A stretch of 52,489 nucleotides of DNA from Candidatus Heimdallarchaeota archaeon. Its GTDB lineage: Archaea; Asgardarchaeota; Heimdallarchaeia; Hodarchaeales; Hodarchaeaceae. The notes under the pieces are model-generated. The model saw only the letters and a program-made list of their open reading frames with translations. It made no database searches and was not told the origin of the DNA. The stretch spans positions 3,108,943-3,161,431 of the forward strand of contig CP070695.1 of the NCBI GenBank assembly GCA_020353515.1. Direction: 5' to 3'. Shown one piece after another: positions 30,960 to 40,916 of the stretch; within the stretch, counting starts at the first letter, position 1; the number at the start of each line of letters is the position of its first letter. The position numbers and the translations under genes were made by a program.

Positions 30960-32114
30960 TTGAATCTAGAGAATCTTCGTAAAGCATTTCCTGTAACAGA
31001 AAAAGCTATTTTTCTGAATCATGCCGCTATCTCACCTAGTCCTACTCCAGTTATTGAGGAATGTCGAAAATGGCTTGTTCACAATAAAATGTATGGCGAT
31101 ATGTACTTCCCAAATCTCGCTAAAATTTTGGATGGGATAGACGAGGATCGTAGAATAGTGGGAAAGTTCATTAATGCAAGATTTCCAGAAGAGGAAATTG
31201 CCTTCACTTACAATACAAGTTATGGCCTCGCTGCTATCGCTGAAGCTATTAAATGGAGTAAGGGTGACAAAATTGTGATAAATGATCTTGAATATACATC
31301 CAATTCTTATACTTATCAAGCTCTCACAAAGAAATTTGACCTTATTTTGGAAGTGATTCCAAATGTAAAAGGAGTACTTCCAATAGAAGCTTTTGAGCAA
31401 ATAATTGATCAATCTACTCGTCTTATAGCAATTTCACATGTTCAATTTGGAAATGGATTTCGTGTGGATCTAAGCGAACTTGGGAAGATTTGTCATGAAA
31501 ATGGAGCACATCTCTTGGTTGATGCCATCCAATCTCTTGGAGCCATTCCGCTAGACGTTCAGAAACAAGATGTGGATTACTTAGCTTCAGGAGGCTATAA
31601 ATGGTTACTAGGTCCACTTGGTACAGGATTTATGTTTATTAAAAGGGAATTAGCAGAATCCCTCCGCCCAAGTTTCGTTGGTTCAATGTCGGATGCAAAT
31701 CCACTTGATTTATCACATCATCCCCATTTTCCTGCTCGCGGGGCAAAAAGATTTCAAGCATCATTGGGGCCACACACCTTTCTATTAGCGAAAGCTGTTC
31801 AATTCTTAAATGACCTTGGTATCGAAAATATTTTTGCTCAAATCATGAAATTAACGGATCAAATCATAGAATTCGTGGAGGAAGAGAGTAGTTTCCAATT
31901 GCAAACCCCAATTGAAAATAAACATCAAAGAAGTGGAATAATTAATTTTTCCTGTCAAAATGGGGAGAAGATTGTTGATCAATTACGTAAATTATCTACG
32001 CCTATTGCAATTTCATACCGTCAAGGGGGGTTACGCATCTCTCCACATTGTTATAATACCTCTGAAGAGGTTCAAATTTGTCTTGAAACTATTAAGTCAC
32101 TTCAAAAGAATTAA
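30960..32114 (+). CDS. Class V PLP-dependent enzyme (cysteine desulfurase/selenocysteine lyase-like fold)
   Basis: FLNHAAISP, VDAIQSLG, PLP lysine in SGGYKWLLGPLGTG, LRISPHCYNT; no RxGxHCA or SSGSAC catalytic-Cys loop. Confidence 0.88.
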   Translation: MNLENLRKAFPVTEKAIFLNHAAISPSPTPVIEECRKWLVHNKMYGDMYFPNLAKILDGIDEDRRIVGKFINARFPEEEIAFTYNTSYGLAAIAEAIKWSKGDKIVINDLEYTSNSYTYQALTKKFDLILEVIPNVKGVLPIEAFEQIIDQSTRLIAISHVQFGNGFRVDLSELGKICHENGAHLLVDAIQSLGAIPLDVQKQDVDYLASGGYKWLLGPLGTGFMFIKRELAESLRPSFVGSMSDANPLDLSHHPHFPARGAKRFQASLGPHTFLLAKAVQFLNDLGIENIFAQIMKLTDQIIEFVEEESSFQLQTPIENKHQRSGIINFSCQNGEKIVDQLRKLSTPIAISYRQGGLRISPHCYNTSEEVQICLETIKSLQKN

Positions 32115-32139
32115 AACTTGCATTTCCGATGTGAATTTA

Positions 32140-32814
32140 ATGATTTATCTCATAATTCAGTTGTTATTGATATGTCTTTGTCTTTCCATTGTTTACTTCG
32201 TTTTTATTGGAGTTAATTTATTAGATTTATCTTTTTTGCCTCTTATATTGCAAGGACTCGCTATAATTTTGTTAACATTCCTGACTTCTTATTTTATGAT
32301 AATAATAATCCTTGCTTTTATCAATAAAATTGCTAGGTTATTTCTGCGTGACAAAGAGGGAGAATTAACTGGTTTCGAGACTATTTTATGGACAATCAAA
32401 GAAACCGCTTGGGATATCGCCAGGTTGATCACAAAGAAAGTAGTTCTCTTACCTCTTTTCCCAGATATATTAACAAGATTATTCGGTTTCAAAAAGAGGA
32501 AAGGAGTTAGTATCATGGCGGATTTATGGGATTTAGAACTCATTGATGTAGGGAGGGGTACATTAATTGGTACGAATGCAATGATAACTGCTCATCACAT
32601 TCGGGGAGGAAAACTTTATCGAAAGCGAATAAAAATTGGTGAAAATTGCACTCTTGGAATTTTATCTGTTGTCCTACCTGGAGCTGAAGTTGGCGACAAT
32701 GTTATGATTAGTGCAGGTTCCCTTGTTCCTGCAAATTGGAAACTCGATTCTAATTCTATTTATTCTGGAGTACCAGTCAAAAAAGTGAAAGAATTGCCAC
32801 CTCTAAAAGAATAG
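32140..32814 (+). CDS. Membrane-anchored hexapeptide-repeat (left-handed beta-helix) acyltransferase; start corrected to ATG 32140
   Basis: Two N-terminal TM helices; IDVGRGTLIG, IKIGENCTLG..SVVLPGAEVGDNVMISAGSLV, YSGVP; the ORF-track start overlaps the previous gene by about 155 bp. Confidence 0.82.
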   Translation: MIYLIIQLLLICLCLSIVYFVFIGVNLLDLSFLPLILQGLAIILLTFLTSYFMIIIILAFINKIARLFLRDKEGELTGFETILWTIKETAWDIARLITKKVVLLPLFPDILTRLFGFKKRKGVSIMADLWDLELIDVGRGTLIGTNAMITAHHIRGGKLYRKRIKIGENCTLGILSVVLPGAEVGDNVMISAGSLVPANWKLDSNSIYSGVPVKKVKELPPLKE

Positions 32815-32829
32815 AAATCAGTATTAATT

Positions 32830-33705
32830 CTATTGAAAAATTAAGATTAAGATTGGGGAGAGGATGATATAATCGATAATGAAAAAATATAACCAAGGTA
32901 AAGGAGCATCTGCAGCTTTCGTTCGATCAGTTTTAACAAGATAAATAGTGTAACAAATCATCATAATCAAAGCGATGAATGTGCTATTTAACAAGCAGAT
33001 AACAAGAACAGCAATAGAAATTAGAAAATAAAAGATATATCTGAGTTTCACTGTATTTTCTATTCCTAATACCACAACGGTAGTTCTTTGTTTTGTTTTT
33101 AGATCGATTGAATAATCAGGGATTTGATGGTTTATCTGAGCAAGTAATGAAAACACAGAAATGTAAAGAAAGATACTATAAAATTGGATATGTTCTTTCT
33201 CAATGCCCCAAATAACATCAAGGCCAAATATGTATAAATAAAGGGGAAGAAAGGTGATCTGAAACCACACTACATGAAAAATCCAATCAAAAACTATTCT
33301 ACTTTTTGCTCGAAACACTGGACTGTTATAAAGATACGCAAGAAGCATTCCTGCTACCGTAAATAAGAAATAAAGTAAGCCTGCAAAGAAACCACAAATC
33401 AATCCAGCAATTAATGAAAACCAAATAACGAACATTCCGATCTTATAATCACGTGTTTCTGGTTCACTACAAAAAACATTTCTGGATTTCTTATATTCAT
33501 CGACAGCATCATAGGGAGCATCAAAATAGTCGTTTGATACCCAAATGAATATATTGAAAAAAACCATTGAAAGGAATATTAGAAAAGCAACATCTAAATT
33601 AAAATTGCTTGGTTGTCGTAAAGCAAGTATTAATCCTGTTAATGCAAGAAGCGATGTTCCTACGATATTAGGAACTCTCAAATGATAAAGGAGAGTATCT
33701 TGCAT
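32830..33705 (-). CDS. UbiA-family prenyltransferase
   Basis: NDYFDAPYD, YNSPVFRAK, HQIPDYSIDLKTKQRTTVVVLG; multiple TM helices. Confidence 0.88.
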   Translation of the reverse strand: MQDTLLYHLRVPNIVGTSLLALTGLILALRQPSNFNLDVAFLIFLSMVFFNIFIWVSNDYFDAPYDAVDEYKKSRNVFCSEPETRDYKIGMFVIWFSLIAGLICGFFAGLLYFLFTVAGMLLAYLYNSPVFRAKSRIVFDWIFHVVWFQITFLPLYLYIFGLDVIWGIEKEHIQFYSIFLYISVFSLLAQINHQIPDYSIDLKTKQRTTVVVLGIENTVKLRYIFYFLISIAVLVICLLNSTFIALIMMICYTIYLVKTDRTKAADAPLPWLYFFIIDYIILSPILILIFQ

Positions 33706-33722
33706 TCAATCACCCATTTTAC

Positions 33723-35405
33723 TCAATCGTCAAGGTTAGTTGAAGGTGCAAGATGCCCAAAAACCTCTTCTGCAATATCAACCGCACCATCAAACAAAGA
33801 TCGTGTTCCCCCCCAATTTTTAAGAGTCTCTGCGTACCTAGTGTGAAATTTCTCTAAGAAATCTCGCAAAGCAGTATGTAATTCTGGATCCTGTTTGTTA
33901 CTAAAGATGGCAGTGGATAATCCCCCTTTTATTTCAGTTAGAATGAAATGATTTCCATGTCTAACCAAATTTAGTTCTCCTTTATCCTTCATAGTCTCCG
34001 ACATGAAGGAAGAGACTGCTTTAAGGGCACCAGAAAGCAATGTGAGCTCGATTGATGTATCAAGCTCCTTATTAAAAGTATAATCAAAAATAGGAAGCCC
34101 ACCCTCTTCAATCACAAGAAGTAAATTGAAATCAAGGGGTTTGTAACTGTCTGATACCCAAAAAAGAGGGAAGGCAGCCAAAATTGCTAAAATTGTTAGG
34201 AGATAGGTAATAAATTCAATAGTAGTAAGATCGGTCACAATAGGCTTTAAGTACCAGTGGCCAAACGCAGATCCAACTCCAAGACCAATTGCAAGTGAGA
34301 CGAAACCAATAGCATAATATCTACCTAGACCATCACGTGGAGAAAGATCGGCCCATAAGGAAGAGTCTAAGGTTGGATGAATTAAAGCAAATGAAAAACC
34401 AATGACTAAGGCAGCTATAAGAAAGCTTGTTGGAGTCTGTTCTAATCCAAATATTAATGATGCAAATACCAAACCATAAATTGCCGCAACTATCATGTTT
34501 TTTCGACCGAAACGATCTGAATAATATCCTGCAGGCAATATCATCAAGAGATCACCAACTAAAACCACAAACCAGAAAGTCTTATCAACAGGTAGATCAA
34601 ACTCACCTATCGTCCATGAAATATTCAAGATTTCTCCTATCTGAGAAAAACTAGCGATAGATATCCCAAGCATTGTATATAACAAAATGTGTGATATTAA
34701 GTAAGCTCGAACTGACCTTCTTCCTATTATTTTTCCAAATTTTGTTGGCCACTTATCATTTTTCCAAGGAATACCAAGATTTCGGGTCAGAAAAACGAAA
34801 ATTAATGACAAAATGAGTCCCAAAACACCAATAGCTATTAAGACACTAACAAAGCTATGACTAAGTAAACCACTTTGAAATTGATGAGAAAACCCTCCTC
34901 CTAGAAGAATGCTTAGTAAAGTGACAACAATAAAGGCAAAAATGCCATATGAATATGTTCTACCACGGTACCAAATATCTGTCAATCCTGCAAACAAAGT
35001 ACCACTACTAGTCAAGAGTATTCCAAAGAAGAAAGCCAAGCTTATTAATCCCGCCATCAATAAGATGCTTTCATCGATAAATACAACAGTTACAATCACA
35101 GAAATTGAACTTCCTACCATTCCGACTAGAACGGAGACTCGAAGATACTCTGGATGTTTATCAAGTATTGTACCAGTGAAATAGAGCATGAAGACGATTA
35201 GAAATAGAATAAATCCTAAGATTAAAATACCCAATCTTAGAAAAGGGTTATTAGGAGATGCTTCCACTTTTTCTAGAATATCAAAAGAATAAATCAAAAG
35301 TAAAAGGGAAGCTAACAACCAAGAAAATATGTTGGGGATGATTACAGTCAATGTAGTACTAATTTTCACTTTAATCACATTAAAATTATTCGAGGTAGTT
35401 CTCAT
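33723..35405 (-). CDS. MFS transporter fused to C-terminal longin-like domain (paralogue A)
   Basis: About 12 TM helices, motif A GYYSDRFGRK; soluble tail LLLVIEEGGLPIFDYTF...LLSGALKAVSSFMSE...ALRDFLEKFHTRY...W.G..LFD. Confidence 0.85.
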   Translation of the reverse strand: MRTTSNNFNVIKVKISTTLTVIIPNIFSWLLASLLLLIYSFDILEKVEASPNNPFLRLGILILGFILFLIVFMLYFTGTILDKHPEYLRVSVLVGMVGSSISVIVTVVFIDESILLMAGLISLAFFFGILLTSSGTLFAGLTDIWYRGRTYSYGIFAFIVVTLLSILLGGGFSHQFQSGLLSHSFVSVLIAIGVLGLILSLIFVFLTRNLGIPWKNDKWPTKFGKIIGRRSVRAYLISHILLYTMLGISIASFSQIGEILNISWTIGEFDLPVDKTFWFVVLVGDLLMILPAGYYSDRFGRKNMIVAAIYGLVFASLIFGLEQTPTSFLIAALVIGFSFALIHPTLDSSLWADLSPRDGLGRYYAIGFVSLAIGLGVGSAFGHWYLKPIVTDLTTIEFITYLLTILAILAAFPLFWVSDSYKPLDFNLLLVIEEGGLPIFDYTFNKELDTSIELTLLSGALKAVSSFMSETMKDKGELNLVRHGNHFILTEIKGGLSTAIFSNKQDPELHTALRDFLEKFHTRYAETLKNWGGTRSLFDGAVDIAEEVFGHLAPSTNLDD

Positions 35406-35606
35406 TGTCTTCTTGAAAAAGATCTATTATTTTGGGTGAGGTGATTCTTTCCTATCCTAGGATTCTCTTCAAAAATTATTAAAATTGTTGATCTATCAAA
35501 CTTTATTAATTTACTTGCATTCCTATTTCCATTTGAGATAAGGATAAATTAAGGAAAACAATATACTTTCAACATTTATTTTCGAAAAGGATTAAAAATA
35601 TTGATT

Positions 35607-37256
35607 TTAAGACTCCTTTGGACTTCCTAGAGCTGTTTTTGATGGAATAAGCGGGCCAAAAATGTCTTCCGCAATTCCTACAGCAGGATCGAAAACATTT
35701 GCTTGACCAATCCATTCATCGATTTGCTCTTGGAATGCTAAACAGAACCTAGCTAGGAAAGTATCTAAACTAATTTTAAGTTCAGGGTCAATTTTATTAG
35801 CAAAAATAGTAGCAATGAGCTCTTTTTTCTCGGTCCCTGCTTTAGCTTGTACGGTAAACACCTTTCCATGACGAACAAGATCCAAAACTGCTGATTGGTC
35901 ACTTAATCCCTCAAAGAACGTACTAATGGCTGATAAAGCTCCAGCTACAAGAGCTAAGTCTTTTTGTGTAATTTTACTTTGATCAGATCGATCAAATTCA
36001 TAATTAAACAAGCACATTCCGCTTGTGGAGACAAGAAGAAGGTAAATTTCGAGAGGATCAAATGAATCTGCCACAAAAAAAAGTGGAAACAATCCAAGGA
36101 CAGCAACTCCAATAAGAACATAACTAATCACACTAGTACTTTGGGGAAGTATGAAAAGTCCTATCACTAATCCAAATCCAACACCTTGTAGTAAGAAGAT
36201 GAAACTGAGTGCAAAATATCGCCCTACTGAGTCTAGGGGGCTTATATCAGCCCAGATTGCACTATCAAGAGAAGGGTGAAACATAGAAAAACTTACTCCT
36301 AAGAGGTAGGCTGAGAAATAGAACATTATCGGATTTTCACTAAGGCCTACAATTAACGCGGAAATAACTATCCCATACACCCCCATTACAATAAGATTCT
36401 TTCGCCCAAAGCGGTCGGCAAACCATCCCATTGGAATCACACAAATTAAGTCACCAAAGAAAACTATGATCCAGAATAGGTTTCTTTGATCGAATTGAGA
36501 CATTCCAAAGAAAGGAAGATTAATCCACAGATCGGAGTAACGAAATTGACCAATCTGGGAGATCGTGGCAAATGCAATGCCTAACATAAGGTATATGAAA
36601 AATCTTGAAACCAAATAGATTTTAACTGATCTGCGATTAAGAATTTGTTGAATCGGAGTAGGAAATTCATCATTCACCCAAGGAGATACTGATTGAGAGA
36701 TGTAATAAAAGATCAACGCAGAAAGAATTGTAAAACAACCAATAATGACCAAAGGTGGCTTAAAATCCCAGTTTAAAAGTTCAGCAATTGGAATAATGCT
36801 TAATGATAAGATTGCACTTAAAAATAGTGCACTAGCATAAATTTTCCCACGATGTTGAAGATCTGCATGCCCAGCATAGAGAGCACCTGCTCCTGTTGCC
36901 AAAATACCAAGAAAAATACCTAGCATAGGCAAACCAAATAGAATAAAAATAACAAAATCGACACCTAGAACTATCAAAAAGAGAGAGACACCCGTCATTA
37001 ATAGTGATCCTGTGATTAAAGGTTTAAGTAATTGTGGATTCTTATCAATCACATGTCCTGTGAGAAACAACGAAACAGTAGCAAGAAATGTAGTTACGAA
37101 TAATATAACCACTCCTAGATTGAAAATATCTTTAGTTATATCCATCTGAAAAGTTTCACTAAGCAGATCAAAGGCATAGACCAGGAGAAATAGCGGAGTA
37201 AGTAACCATACAACGGTAATAGGTAATATAATAAAGAAAATCCTCGTGATTTTCAT
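35607..37256 (-). CDS. MFS transporter fused to C-terminal longin-like domain (paralogue B)
   Basis: About 12 TM helices, GWFADRFGRK; tail YLLLVSTSGMCLFNYEF...LVAGALSAISTFFE...SLDTFLARFCLAF...WIGQANVFD. Confidence 0.85.
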   Translation of the reverse strand: MKITRIFFIILPITVVWLLTPLFLLVYAFDLLSETFQMDITKDIFNLGVVILFVTTFLATVSLFLTGHVIDKNPQLLKPLITGSLLMTGVSLFLIVLGVDFVIFILFGLPMLGIFLGILATGAGALYAGHADLQHRGKIYASALFLSAILSLSIIPIAELLNWDFKPPLVIIGCFTILSALIFYYISQSVSPWVNDEFPTPIQQILNRRSVKIYLVSRFFIYLMLGIAFATISQIGQFRYSDLWINLPFFGMSQFDQRNLFWIIVFFGDLICVIPMGWFADRFGRKNLIVMGVYGIVISALIVGLSENPIMFYFSAYLLGVSFSMFHPSLDSAIWADISPLDSVGRYFALSFIFLLQGVGFGLVIGLFILPQSTSVISYVLIGVAVLGLFPLFFVADSFDPLEIYLLLVSTSGMCLFNYEFDRSDQSKITQKDLALVAGALSAISTFFEGLSDQSAVLDLVRHGKVFTVQAKAGTEKKELIATIFANKIDPELKISLDTFLARFCLAFQEQIDEWIGQANVFDPAVGIAEDIFGPLIPSKTALGSPKES

Positions 37257-37409
37257 AGATACACTACCTTAATGTGAACTTTATAATTTTTAAGAGGAAC
37301 AAAACTCAAATTAAAAAATGCTTCTCATGAAACTGTTAAATGGGCAGACATTTTAAAACCATATTCATCGATATTGAAGTTTTTTTGTGCCAGACTCGGT
37401 GAAAAACAT

Positions 37410-39095
37410 ATGAAAAAGACACCAATCACAGTAATCAAACTAGGTGGTAGTTTAATCACTTTTAAGAGAGACAAATATCTTATTGATCAATATCTAGATC
37501 AGATAGATCGTTTCATGTCAAGTTCAGGTTTATTACAGGAATTAAGCCTTAAGATTTTAGATTTAATTAATTTCTATCATTTAAGGAAAATTTTTAAGAA
37601 TTTATCATCAGATTTGGCTCAGAATCCCAAAAAGAAGATTGTAATAATACATGGGGCTGGTTCAATTGGTCATTCGTTAGTTTTACACTTATTGAAGAAT
37701 AATGCAGACTTAGAAACTGTTTATCCAATAATTAAGCTCACGGTAGCAATTCAGAATCAAATTATAGTCTCAGAAGCTATAAAACATGGAATTAATGCTA
37801 TTTCTTTTCCATCACATCTGATAATGAGGGGAAAACCAACAGAAAAAACATCTGTGAAGAGAACAGATTCCACTGATTTAACAGTATTTGAACAGATAAT
37901 CACCGAAACAAATGCTGTACCAGTATTCTACGGAGACGTTGGCCATTCTTCAGCTGGATGGAAAGTTTTCTCTGGAGATGTATATCCTACAGCTCTATCA
38001 AGACGTCTCAAAAAGACCTATCTTGAGTCAGCTATCTTCCTGACGAATGTTGAAGGAAAAAAAACTGGAATTTATACAAAGGATCCTAAATTTAACGATG
38101 CAGAGTTTATTTCCCTTATTGAAGTAGAAAATAACAAAATAAACTGCTTTGGTTCTGAGAAAGAGATCTTAACATTTCAAGGAGGGCAAACTACTGAAGA
38201 TTTTGATGTTACTGAAGCAATGGGAGGAAAGCTTCGTAATCTTATTGAATTAGCGAACAATCAGACACATTCTTGGGTTGTTGGTTTTGATGAATTCAAT
38301 GAGGCGTTGAATGGAGGTAATATAGGGACAAGAATTATCCCAAAAGTGACTAGAGGAATATCCGTAACTTTTCTGGGAACTGGTGATGCATTCGCTTCAG
38401 GTGGGGGAAAAAGTGCCTCAACTTTTATTAAAGTGAAGAACCAAGGAATACTTTTGGATTGTGGGCCACATACTCTACAAGCTTTGAAAAATTTAGGGAG
38501 AAAAACAAATGATATTGATCTAATTCTTATATCCCACTTTCATGGTGATCATTTTGGTGGAATTCCTTTCTTTCTATTAGAAACCACTCTTCAACAAAAT
38601 AGAACAAAACCTCTTACAATCATCGGCCCTCCAAACATCGAGAATCAAGTCAATGATTTATACTCTGTATTGTATGAAACTATCGCAAACCAAGAATATC
38701 CTTTTCCTTGTAAATTTCAAATACTTACACCAACAACTTCTCCCCTGGATATATGTGGTTTGAGGATCAAAGCTTTTAAAATGTTACACACTCCTGAAGC
38801 TCAAGGTTATAGAATAGAAACCAATAATTCCTCAATAGCTTATTCAGGTGATACTGGATGGACCGAAGAGTTACTTCCTCTAGTTAAGGACACACAACTC
38901 GCAATTTTGGAGTGTAATTTTTTCGATACAGAACTAGAAATTCATCTTAATTACCATCAATTATCAAGACTTAAATCCTTAACTGACAAGTTAGCTCTTA
39001 TTCATTTGGGATCCGAAGTTTTAGACAGATTTACCGTGTTTGAAGAAGAAGACTCAATGTTTATACCTGAAGAAGGGCAAACTATAAGATTATAA
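37410..39095 (+). CDS. Isopentenyl phosphate kinase (amino-acid kinase fold) fused to RNase Z-like metallo-beta-lactamase-fold hydrolase
   Basis: N-half VIKLGGSLIT, HGAGSIGH, PVFYGDV, SGD, DVT..M..KL, GTRI; C-half FLGTGDAF, LLDCG, SHFHGDH, MLH, YSGDTG, ILEC, H, IHLG; ATG 37410 with GGTGA SD. Confidence 0.8.
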   Translation: MKKTPITVIKLGGSLITFKRDKYLIDQYLDQIDRFMSSSGLLQELSLKILDLINFYHLRKIFKNLSSDLAQNPKKKIVIIHGAGSIGHSLVLHLLKNNADLETVYPIIKLTVAIQNQIIVSEAIKHGINAISFPSHLIMRGKPTEKTSVKRTDSTDLTVFEQIITETNAVPVFYGDVGHSSAGWKVFSGDVYPTALSRRLKKTYLESAIFLTNVEGKKTGIYTKDPKFNDAEFISLIEVENNKINCFGSEKEILTFQGGQTTEDFDVTEAMGGKLRNLIELANNQTHSWVVGFDEFNEALNGGNIGTRIIPKVTRGISVTFLGTGDAFASGGGKSASTFIKVKNQGILLDCGPHTLQALKNLGRKTNDIDLILISHFHGDHFGGIPFFLLETTLQQNRTKPLTIIGPPNIENQVNDLYSVLYETIANQEYPFPCKFQILTPTTSPLDICGLRIKAFKMLHTPEAQGYRIETNNSSIAYSGDTGWTEELLPLVKDTQLAILECNFFDTELEIHLNYHQLSRLKSLTDKLALIHLGSEVLDRFTVFEEEDSMFIPEEGQTIRL

Positions 39096-39575: not shown

Positions 39576-40136
39576 TTGCCTAAACGTAAGGAAATCAAAC
39601 ACATTCTGAAACTTTTACTCTTAGGTGACGGAGCGGTAGGGAAAACATCATTGATTTTACGCTTTATTGAAAATAGGTTTCGAGAAGAATATAGTATGAG
39701 TTTAGGAGTTGATTTCTTAACAAAAACAGTCCAATTTATTGATGAAAATAATAATCAACGGACTGTTTCGTTGCAAGTCTGGGACATTGCAGGACAAGCT
39801 CGACATGTTTCATACTCTCATCTTTACCTAACAGGAGCTTCAGGCGCACTTTATGTGTTTGATTTGACACGACGAGAAACACTTCTTCATATGCAGGAAA
39901 GATGGCAATCACAAGTATTGAGAGTCTCTCCACAGTGTTTATCAATTCTTATTGGAAATAAAGCCGATTTAACTAAAGCGCGAGCATTAACTGAAGCTCA
40001 AACTAAAAGAGTTCTAGAGGCCATGCGTGTTATTGATTATATCGAAACCTCTGCAAAAACAGGAAAAAACGTTAATGAAGCTTTTCAAACCATGACGACG
40101 AGAATATTGAACGTTACTGCGAAGAAATTTTTATGA
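39576..40136 (+). CDS. Rab-like small GTPase (Ras superfamily)
   Basis: G1 GDGAVGKTS, switch I YSMSLGVDF, G3 WDIAGQ, G4 NKAD, G5 ETSAK; TTG start with GGAG SD; no C-terminal Cys. Confidence 0.93.
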   Translation: MPKRKEIKHILKLLLLGDGAVGKTSLILRFIENRFREEYSMSLGVDFLTKTVQFIDENNNQRTVSLQVWDIAGQARHVSYSHLYLTGASGALYVFDLTRRETLLHMQERWQSQVLRVSPQCLSILIGNKADLTKARALTEAQTKRVLEAMRVIDYIETSAKTGKNVNEAFQTMTTRILNVTAKKFL

Positions 40137-40145
40137 GGATTATCC

Positions 40146-40916
40146 ATGTCTTTAGAGAAGTTCAAAGCAGTTAAAGCTTTTTTTATCTTCCAAAAAGAAA
40201 CAGGAAGCACATTATTTACTCGATCTTATGAGACTCAAGATACAAAGACTCCAGATGCACATCTAGTAGTAGCTTTTTTGACAGCTATGTTCTCTTTCGC
40301 TAAATCATCATCTTTAAGTGATCTTCGAGTTGTAGATATGACTGATCTTCGCTTTTCGTTCATTGAAAGAGGTGGTTTAGTTTTTGCTATCTTGGCATCA
40401 CCTCTCGTTAGTCCTTTAGACTTACAGTTTAAATTGACCACCATAGGAAGTCTATTTTTAGCAGAATATGGATCAACAGTTGATGAAATGCAACTCGTTG
40501 ATACAGAGATCTTTGATAAATTCACAAGTCATGTTGATGAAGTATTCTTAGGCGAAACCCGTGAAATGCTGACCAGTTCAAAAAATGCAGCTCTTTTCTA
40601 CCTTAAAAAATTGGTACAAGACAAGAATATTGGGGCGCGAGGAGCCATGATTGTTTCGTTTACTGGGGATATATTAGTTGAATACAAAATGGATCAAAAA
40701 CGTATGGCAGGAGCCATCCGCTTGTTAAACGTATCAACTTATATGAGGAATTTACGATATTTAGTAGTTTCTTCAGAAGCAACTAATTTGGTTGCTTATA
40801 AAATTAGCGAAGGACTTCTACTTTATGTAGATGGGAATCCTGACATAGGACTTGAAAGTCTTGTTGTTAAAGTCTCCGATACAGTTAGACAGGTTAAAGA
40901 GATCATCCCTCATTAA
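40146..40916 (+). CDS. Longin-like domain fused to roadblock/LC7 (MglB/LAMTOR-like) domain
   Basis: N-part FFIFQKETGSTLFTRSY...LVVAFLTAMFSFAK...LTTIGSLFLAEY...FDKF; C-part GARGAMIVSFTGDIL...LRYLVVSSEATNLVAYKISEGLLLYV..NPDIGLESL; 9 bp after the GTPase, GAGG SD. Confidence 0.75.
   Translation: MSLEKFKAVKAFFIFQKETGSTLFTRSYETQDTKTPDAHLVVAFLTAMFSFAKSSSLSDLRVVDMTDLRFSFIERGGLVFAILASPLVSPLDLQFKLTTIGSLFLAEYGSTVDEMQLVDTEIFDKFTSHVDEVFLGETREMLTSSKNAALFYLKKLVQDKNIGARGAMIVSFTGDILVEYKMDQKRMAGAIRLLNVSTYMRNLRYLVVSSEATNLVAYKISEGLLLYVDGNPDIGLESLVVKVSDTVRQVKEIIPH

Follow-up and report, generated by a model that had tools for sequence, protein, structure and literature searches.

The solute carrier SLC38A9, in its link with Rag/Ragulator, is physically tied to a longin or roadblock dimer acting on small GTPases. 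PQLC2, which associates with C9orf72/SMCR8/WDR41, is likewise a solute carrier tied to a longin complex acting on small GTPases (PMC12290439). Paired longins also form the Rab exchange-factor platforms of TRAPP (Bet5/Trs23; PDB 3CUE) and Mon1-Ccz1 (PDB 5LDD; PMC5216073). Among major facilitator superfamily (MFS) proteins, the transceptors Snf3/Rgt2 and UhpC use the MFS body as a sensor, with an intracellular salt-bridge network tied to the signaling state, and the cytoplasmic C-terminal tail of Snf3/Rgt2 recruits signaling factors (PMC8154325). In Asgard archaea, an NPRL2-like longin fused to two-component signaling domains (Liu et al., bioRxiv 2020.10.19.343400) and GTPase-longin and TRAPPC3-longin fusions (PMC10933270) have been reported. 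Here, a stretch of 52,489 nucleotides from Candidatus Heimdallarchaeota archaeon (contig CP070695.1, positions 3,108,943 to 3,161,431; hereinafter referred to as the window) was analyzed, in which two adjacent genes, paralogues A and B, were found to encode a 12-helix MFS carrier fused to a C-terminal longin domain. The host genome is a single contig of 4.94 Mb and is 96% complete. An earlier reading made from the letters of the window alone (hereinafter the sequence-only reading) had proposed a nutrient-sensing transporter pair whose longin tails heterodimerize to control a GTPase.

Both open reading frames (ORFs) were identified on the minus strand where the sequence-only reading had placed two adjacent, co-oriented paralogues, and the shared motifs it quoted, including DKNP and DKHP, were all seen in the translations. 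A and B aligned end to end with 37% identity over 561 columns (E 2e-120). The start of B is likely a GTG codon at 35369, giving a protein of 548 amino acids (aa) that matches the database gene call (P0039) and the starts of homologues. Each protein matched Pfam MFS_1 above the cut-off; Sugar_tr remained below its cut-off, giving no membership in the sugar-porter or OPA families. The AlphaFold2 model of A (predicted local distance difference test score, pLDDT, 87; predicted template modeling score, pTM, 0.88) contained 12 long helices and, after them, a tail of beta-beta-alpha-beta-beta-beta-alpha-alpha topology, in agreement with the approximately 12 transmembrane (TM) helices expected for each paralogue. 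The body of A matched solved MFS structures (VMAT2, SV2, NorA, and LmrP) with Z up to 37 at 10-17% identity, including VMAT2 at Z 37.2 (root-mean-square deviation, rmsd, 3.2; 371 residues aligned). Its closest solved folds were the DHA1/SLC18-like carriers VMAT2, NorA, and LmrP (Z 33-37); unlike these, A and B have motif A intact in the C-terminal but not the N-terminal half (C-half and N-half), lack the motif-B arginine of TM4, and carry the longin tail.

In the standard MFS topology, a tail past TM12 is cytoplasmic. The longin topology beta1-beta2-alpha1-beta3-beta4-beta5-alpha2-alpha3 was assigned by DSSP both in the model of A and in a second model, built for the B tail alone (pLDDT 82), within limits that agreed with those first proposed for the tails (A, 35646-36053; B, 33753-34136). 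In Foldseek, the B tail matched Trs23 (E 8e-6, TM-score 0.64) and Bet5 (TM-score 0.68), and the top matches were all longin or roadblock domains. VIA-align returned the VAMP7 longin (Z 13.3, rmsd 3.0, 124 residues aligned), Sec22 (Z 12.9), Bet5 (Z 12.3), Mon1 (Z 11.6), and the Lokiarchaeota roadblock-longin dimer PDB 8YQG (Z 10.8). Searches of PDB sequences with tail and full-length profiles gave nothing significant, so that the longin assignment rests on structure; the longin signal at the sequence level was weak (Sybindin, E 0.012). The fusion was intact in more than 100 homologues, which retain the tail and thereby exclude an assembly artefact or a chance fusion. From the models, it appears virtually certain that the MFS fold, the longin fold, and their fusion in A and B are real. 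A folded C-terminal domain on an MFS protein is also known from YajR, where it is ferredoxin-like.

Homologues of A and B carried Hodarchaeales or Hodarchaeota names, Ca. Hodarchaeum mangrovi among them, and the same architecture was found in a Lokiarchaeia/Helarchaeales subfamily. More MFS-longin fusions were detected in several Asgard families, as single genes at the six loci outside Hodarchaeales whose flanks were examined; conservation of the A-B pair across Asgard genomes, which the sequence-only reading had suggested checking, did not hold there. A profile search of representatives at 50% identity yielded approximately 70 clusters with 10-13 helices and a longin among the best 150, and the few named clusters were Asgard. 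All 10 fusions tested (eight from these clusters and two from genome loci) matched MFS_1. In a tree with 25 ordinary MFS proteins of the host genome, the fusion MFS bodies all fell on one side of a branch with 97% support, which fits one old fusion event, within the limits of long branches, an outgroup from one genome, and profile-biased sampling. The ESM Atlas returned only ordinary MFS clusters, and its small clusters are not searchable, so that neither novelty nor absence follows from this result. No description of an MFS-longin fusion was found in the open literature searched (text without figures or supplements; most subscription papers lay outside this scope), and databases label these proteins plainly as "MFS transporter." The Asgard longin fusions reported previously likewise show the longin shuffled onto other domains, and no MFS fusion was found in the text of those papers. 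The MFS-longin fusion is thus a real, old, and apparently undescribed architecture.

The degenerate N-half motif A (DKHP/DKNP) remarked on in the sequence-only reading turned out to be a trait of the whole family. With canonical motif A scored as D-[RK]-x-G-[RK]-[RK], the N-half motif was present in none of 83 fusions and in 6 of the 25 ordinary MFS proteins of the host genome, and the C-half motif in 35 and 2, respectively, a comparison of related sequences and hence not an independent test. In TM2-3 the motif was cut down to G67/D71/K72; in TM8-9 it was canonical, with D281, G284, R285, and K286 invariant. Because motif A may sit in either half of working carriers (PMC8154325), its absence from the N-half does not show that transport was lost. 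Among the 83 divergent fusions, mean identity was 30% in the tail and 16-19% in the MFS halves. The gate residues and the hinge acid were retained at 83-100% (D281, 99%; R285, 98%; D/E337, 100%; R136 of R136-G137, 83%; hinge D/E397, 96%), the hinge between TM12 and the longin was short and conserved, and two small alpha1 residues spaced four apart, G and A/G, were kept at 96% and 100%. In contrast to gate and tail, the cavity varied: D30, H218, D269, H327, and D331 were not kept, and no titratable cavity residue was conserved over the wide family. Within Hodarchaeales only, the TM7 histidine, H327/D331 of TM10 and, in A and B, D269 of TM8 reached 77-100% conservation. The TM10 His-acid pair with the TM8 acid recalls the proton coupling of LacY, a likeness of residues and not an alignment.

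Inside the paralogue clades, conservation of the tail equaled that of the C-half and exceeded that of the N-half. Alpha1 and beta1-beta2 ranked among the best-kept segments, alpha1 scoring 0.84, 0.88, and 0.95 in A, B, and the third paralogue C, respectively. A conserved gate, a variable cavity, and a constant tail fit the pattern expected of a switch with variable input, as judged from alignments; the inspection of cavity residues suggested in the sequence-only reading was thus consistent with a conformational switch bearing an output domain. At residue 218 of A (window 36603-36605), a TM7 position, the host genome has arginine in place of the histidine carried by 77% of A sequences, 98% of B sequences, and 100% of C sequences; this arginine may alter the cavity chemistry of the host A.

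The tails of A and B were predicted to pair with an interface score (interaction prediction score from aligned errors, ipSAE) of 0.64, compared with 0.06 for the best of three controls, which were unrelated proteins and not other longins and are therefore silent on specificity. Of 80 solved complexes, 58 reach the mark used for pairing, as do 2 of 110 mismatched pairs; these counts are rough here, as our own alignments were used. Runs shared at least 91% of contacts, with a partner pLDDT of at least 79. The predicted contacts comprised antiparallel alpha1 helices and beta3, the arrangement of Bet5/Trs23 and Mon1-Ccz1, with which A and B also share the longin fold and the alpha1 small residues four apart; the G-x-P turn before beta2 is likewise shared in B and C. 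Because this interface is that of solved longin dimers, the prediction may reproduce known complexes, and its pass shows likeness to them rather than binding.

Conservation of the predicted face was assessed apart from the model. In genomes that have A, identity was 90.6% across the B interface, 71.9% across the remainder of the tail, and 65.8% across the MFS body; when clades with and without A were compared, the corresponding values were 86%, 65.6%, and 57%. Selection on the face is therefore strong irrespective of whether A is present. Moreover, A, B, and C share a near-identical alpha1 core and a beta3 motif that was not seen in other longins of the host genome. Dimerization of the tails through alpha1/beta3 is thus predicted with good confidence. 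As the face is common to the paralogues, pairing as B-B, A-A, or B-C is no less possible; dimerization is likely common to the family, A-B being an allowed and not a required pair. In the host genome, which has no third paralogue, A-B pairing is likely, and the chance that A-B dimers form there is put slightly above even. Of the heterodimer proposed in the sequence-only reading, a tail dimer at the canonical interface was thus recovered in prediction; a dedicated or obligate pair was not, as A was lost from one clade that kept the B interface and the six loci outside Hodarchaeales hold single genes.

In the genus, the paralogues fell into three well-supported clades (A, B, and C), with a rarer D. 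A recent tandem duplication was excluded, since A, B, and C each form a distinct clade that has full support and spans the genus. Among 22 genomes, A lay directly before B in 14, was separated from it by three genes in two, was gone from an intact locus in five, and had no match in one (71% complete). B was present in every well-assembled genome. A was found neither at the locus nor elsewhere in G002, G004, G013, G018, and G020 (84-93% complete); these five form one clade, which indicates one loss event, and three metagenomic relatives showed the same A-less layout. C, a single gene at another site, was carried by four of the five, and in the fifth (G013) a match of 41 residues was found, possibly part of C. 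No genome thus proves a B-only state, and in the A-less clade B may pair with C or with itself. C was not found in the host genome. One member of the A-less clade has an IS605/TnpB element in A's place upstream of B (L143:3141-4690). The A gene of G005 (L040:8974-10566) is interrupted by an in-frame TGA, so that it may be broken or incorrectly sequenced, or may mark an early second loss. One subgroup of C (L054, L056, L057, L059, and L061-L063) lies beside two genes, one of the HpaB family (4-hydroxyphenylacetate 3-hydroxylase-like) and one unannotated, of approximately 600 aa, a possible hint at a substrate.

The features of the locus are listed in Table 1. Of the 11 A loci viewed, 8 had the promoter element 5' of A. 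Where A is present, the region upstream of B showed no comparable conserved element; for this reason, transcription of A, B, and the downstream gene as one transcript is plausible. A co-oriented UbiA or LbH gene followed B in all 19 loci with downstream sequence. Co-oriented paralogues of the LbH gene, which is convergent in the window, lie directly behind B in most relatives, and in the window the UbiA-family prenyltransferase is probably co-transcribed with B. The constant presence of such a gene behind B suggests real transport of a small molecule that is modified afterwards. In two genomes, genes for SelR (MsrB), a methyltransferase, and a zinc-ribbon protein lie between A and B (L037:1990-4617 and L038:8761-11384), and A lacks the conserved promoter element. 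The gene divergent from A (37374-39095) scored 92 bits against NCBIfam IPPK_Arch, below the cut-off of 120; its fused metallo-beta-lactamase domain is RNase Z-like, and the gene is conserved in the genus.

Table 1. Features of the MFS-longin locus, in window positions (nt, nucleotides; BRE, B recognition element).
Feature	Position	Strand	Basis
Paralogue A, MFS-longin fusion, 549 aa	35607..37256	-	ORF, MFS_1, AlphaFold2 model
A, MFS body, 12 helices, residues 1-398	36063..37256	-	Model and conservation
A, conserved gate residues D71, R136-G137, D281-R285, D337	within 36063..37256	-	
A, intramembrane residues D30, R218 (H in most orthologues), D269, H327, D331	within 36063..37256	-	
A, longin domain, residues 402-537	35646..36053	-	Model
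A, predicted dimer face	alpha1 ~35910-35966; beta3 ~35865-35885	-	Tail-pair prediction
Paralogue B, MFS-longin fusion, longest ORF 560 aa	33723..35405	-	ORF, MFS_1
B, MFS body, 12 helices	34149..35369	-	MFS_1 and alignment
B, longin domain, residues 424-551	33753..34136	-	Model, Foldseek, VIA-align
B, predicted dimer face	alpha1 ~33999-34049; beta3 ~33954-33995	-	Tail-pair prediction
BRE/TATA-like promoter element, 54-70 nt upstream of the A start codon	37310..37326	-	Conservation
UbiA-family prenyltransferase, 17 nt downstream of B	32830..33705	-	Context
LbH (hexapeptide) acetyltransferase, membrane-anchored, convergent in this window	31960..32814	+	Context
Isopentenyl-phosphate-kinase-like and metallo-beta-lactamase fusion, divergent from A	37374..39095	+	Conserved context; role in the system putative
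Rab-like GTPase and its own soluble longin-containing gene, 9 nt downstream	39576..40916	+	Context only

As the explanation we favor, at slightly short of an even chance, A and B would be working carriers whose longin tails dimerize into a membrane-bound small-GTPase platform coupled to the carrier gate. Members of an old Asgard family, they would each join an MFS carrier to a cytoplasmic longin by the short conserved hinge at TM12, and the two tails, predicted to pair via alpha1/beta3 as in Bet5/Trs23 and Mon1-Ccz1, would bring two carriers together. The carriers would still cycle, moving a small metabolite handled by the product of the UbiA or acetyltransferase gene behind B, and the paired alpha1 helices would form a membrane-bound docking platform for one of the approximately 79 small GTPases, its position or availability tracking the state of the cytoplasmic gate. 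Such a transporter-receptor would be the eukaryotic link from PQLC2 to a longin complex, hard-wired in one chain. Binding of a small GTPase by the platform is possible, with nearly as much for it as against it, and binding that follows the substrate state is somewhat doubtful. In Mon1-Ccz1, the GTPase sits on the surface formed jointly by the alpha1 helices, and exchange is abolished by bulky substitutions at this site (PMC5216073); by analogy, the small alpha1 residues of A and B are compatible with such a GTPase face.

Several observations weigh against a GTPase platform or against carriers of this kind. The host genome encodes approximately 79 small-GTPase-like and 42 longin-like proteins, and of the 42 longin genes, 7 are situated no more than 5 kb from a GTPase gene, compared with 14% of all ORFs. 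No GTPase gene was found near any fetched C locus, and one was near only one of eight fusion loci outside Hodarchaeales. The Rab-like GTPase gene of the window (ORF 39576-40136, 2.3 kb from A) is itself coupled to a longin gene of its own, which lies 9 nt downstream. No GP motif of the kind found in longin GTPase-activating proteins (GAPs), as defined in PMC12290439, was present before beta2 in the tail alignments (B, G-L-P; C, G-x-P; A, G-M-C or G-M-L), and no invariant arginine finger was seen in the A, B, or C tails. The small alpha1 residues are also in the predicted dimer contact list, so that packing alone can explain their conservation. The best VIA-align matches of the B tail were SNARE longins, and longins also work outside GTPase regulation (PMC10933270). 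In addition, one divergent B (P0073) occurs singly in a different context, with neither A nor UbiA nor LbH beside it, and no substrate was identified for A or B, whose nearest structures are just 10-17% identical.

The catalytic part of the question was examined in the tail alignments. In several orthologues, the beta3 motif had Q, K, N, H, or C in place of its arginine, and membership in the FLCN-type GAPs (FLCN, NPRL2, and SMCR8) was rejected, the GP motif and the arginine finger being wanting. Of the catalytic elements of Mon1-Ccz1 and TRAPP (PMC5216073), no Bet3 C-terminal wedge, Mon1 alpha0 helix, or SxDxR elbow loop was visible in the alignments, viewed without a residue-level alignment to Mon1. 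With proximity at background and no known catalytic longin motif visible, the control of a GTPase by the longin tails that the sequence-only reading proposed was not supported. The Rab-like gene remains within approximately 5 kb in the genus, but the whole region is syntenic, and proximity was rejected as evidence of a link because it is at chance level. The Rab and its soluble longin-containing gene of 256 aa (39576-40916) occurred together in all 14 loci reaching them, and they are a better GTPase-longin candidate pair than A and B.

The strictest form of the proposal, an obligate A-B heterodimer serving as guanine nucleotide exchange factor (GEF) for this Rab, would suit the adjacency of A and B in 14 of 22 genomes, their probable single promoter, the predicted pairing of their tails, and the nearness of the Rab. 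The clade without A, however, keeps B, the B interface, and the Rab, and with the synteny of the whole region and the longin gene that the Rab has of its own, we regard this form, and the Rab as the partner in any form, as highly improbable. Control could also run in reverse, the tail being an effector or cargo tag that a GTPase or a soluble longin binds to switch or localize the transporter. Such an arrangement would be in line with the lack of any visible known catalytic GEF or GAP element; the retained intramembrane titratable residues and metabolic gene coupling would then point to transport as the output, and the short conserved hinge could couple tail and gate either way. A variable cavity with a constant tail is, however, more typical of variable input and fixed output, and we consider reverse control quite improbable. 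A similarly low probability is given to pure, non-transporting receptors of the Snf3/Rgt2 type, in which a ligand would shift the gate and the longin tail would read it out. For these there is a precedent (PMC8154325), the canonical N-half motif A occurs in none of the 83 fusions, with loss of its arginines and of the TM4 acid matching them, and the wide family conserves no titratable cavity residue. Set against this are the occurrence of motif A in either half of working carriers (PMC8154325), the retention of D71, R136, and the C-half network, and, in Hodarchaeales, the conservation of H327/D331/D269 and the coupling of B to modifying enzymes.

It is unlikely, although less remote, that A and B are ordinary metabolite transporters in which the longin is a dimerization or membrane-clustering handle, among carriers or with other longin-tailed membrane proteins, and no GTPase takes part. 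Dimer packing would fully explain the conservation of alpha1/beta3, B is tightly coupled to metabolic genes, GTPase genes are not enriched near longin genes, and approximately 10 of the 42 longin proteins are membrane proteins and hence potential partners. Yet, across the phylum, the tail is far better kept than carriers whose cavities diverge, which is more than a passive handle seems to need, and longin and roadblock dimers serve as platforms for GTPases in lineages ranging from bacteria to eukaryotes (PMC10933270). The gate-coupled GTPase platform on working carriers remains our preferred explanation. Its extension to an Asgard-wide set of one-chain transceptors, with varied cavities, tails pairing combinatorially (A-B, B-C, and B-B), and a platform switching a small GTPase by transport state, is doubtful.

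The approximately 10 longin membrane proteins of the host genome carry a related longin at the C-terminus and include two of the 7-helix type, an 871-aa multi-pass protein, and single-pass giants; the MFS body may thus be one of several inputs or anchors. The 871-aa protein (L071:4047-6662; G000 1277047-1279662) has no Pfam match, and its relatives of approximately 740-760 aa, present in many Asgard families, were the commonest matches to the tail. Its gene converges on that of an 876-aa HerA-like ATPase, also with a longin domain (L071:6696-9326). Proteins of 388 and 390 aa combine 6-7 helices with a C-terminal longin (L072:4275-5441 and L073:4353-5525), the second ending 36 nt from a small GTPase gene, and similar tandem proteins were found in L121, L122, and L135. 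Large single-pass surface proteins of 1055-2039 aa (L074:1769-6994, L075:1679-7798, and L076:1591-4758), one with LamG and DUF2341, have the longin just inside the membrane. Further, two tandem TPR proteins each end in a longin (L078:1878-6505), and P0223, a soluble protein of 2171 aa, contains three longin repeats of the A/B tail class.

Compared with TRAPP and Mon1-Ccz1, A and B are fused to a 12-helix MFS carrier, have no Bet3-like third subunit, are not two fixed, mutually required subunits, as A was lost in one clade, and have at most a putative GTPase partner and activity; their tails start straight after TM12, leaving no room for a Mon1-type alpha0 helix. Compared with Snf3/Rgt2, the tail is a folded longin and sensing is putative. 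The proposed logic is like that of PQLC2 and SLC38A9, but those carriers are non-MFS proteins that bind separate complexes non-covalently. By analogy, A and B would work like the eukaryotic transporter-plus-longin-complex systems without being members of them.

Asgard archaea encode dozens of small GTPases and longins, and how regulators are matched to GTPases and how the GTPase switches reach the membrane without lipid anchors are open questions. Pairing Asgard GTPases with regulators from genome layout is hard (PMC10933270). The MFS-longin fusions offer concrete membrane-anchored longins on a carrier that can be set by ligand or by gate mutations. If the one-chain transceptor family proved true, it would stand as a prokaryotic precursor of the transporter-to-longin/Rag nutrient signaling of lysosomes, and as one input class among several membrane modules with the same longin output. 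If the GTPase link is true, transporter-coupled GTPase signaling would predate eukaryotes; if it is false, Asgard longins would also be general membrane dimerization modules.

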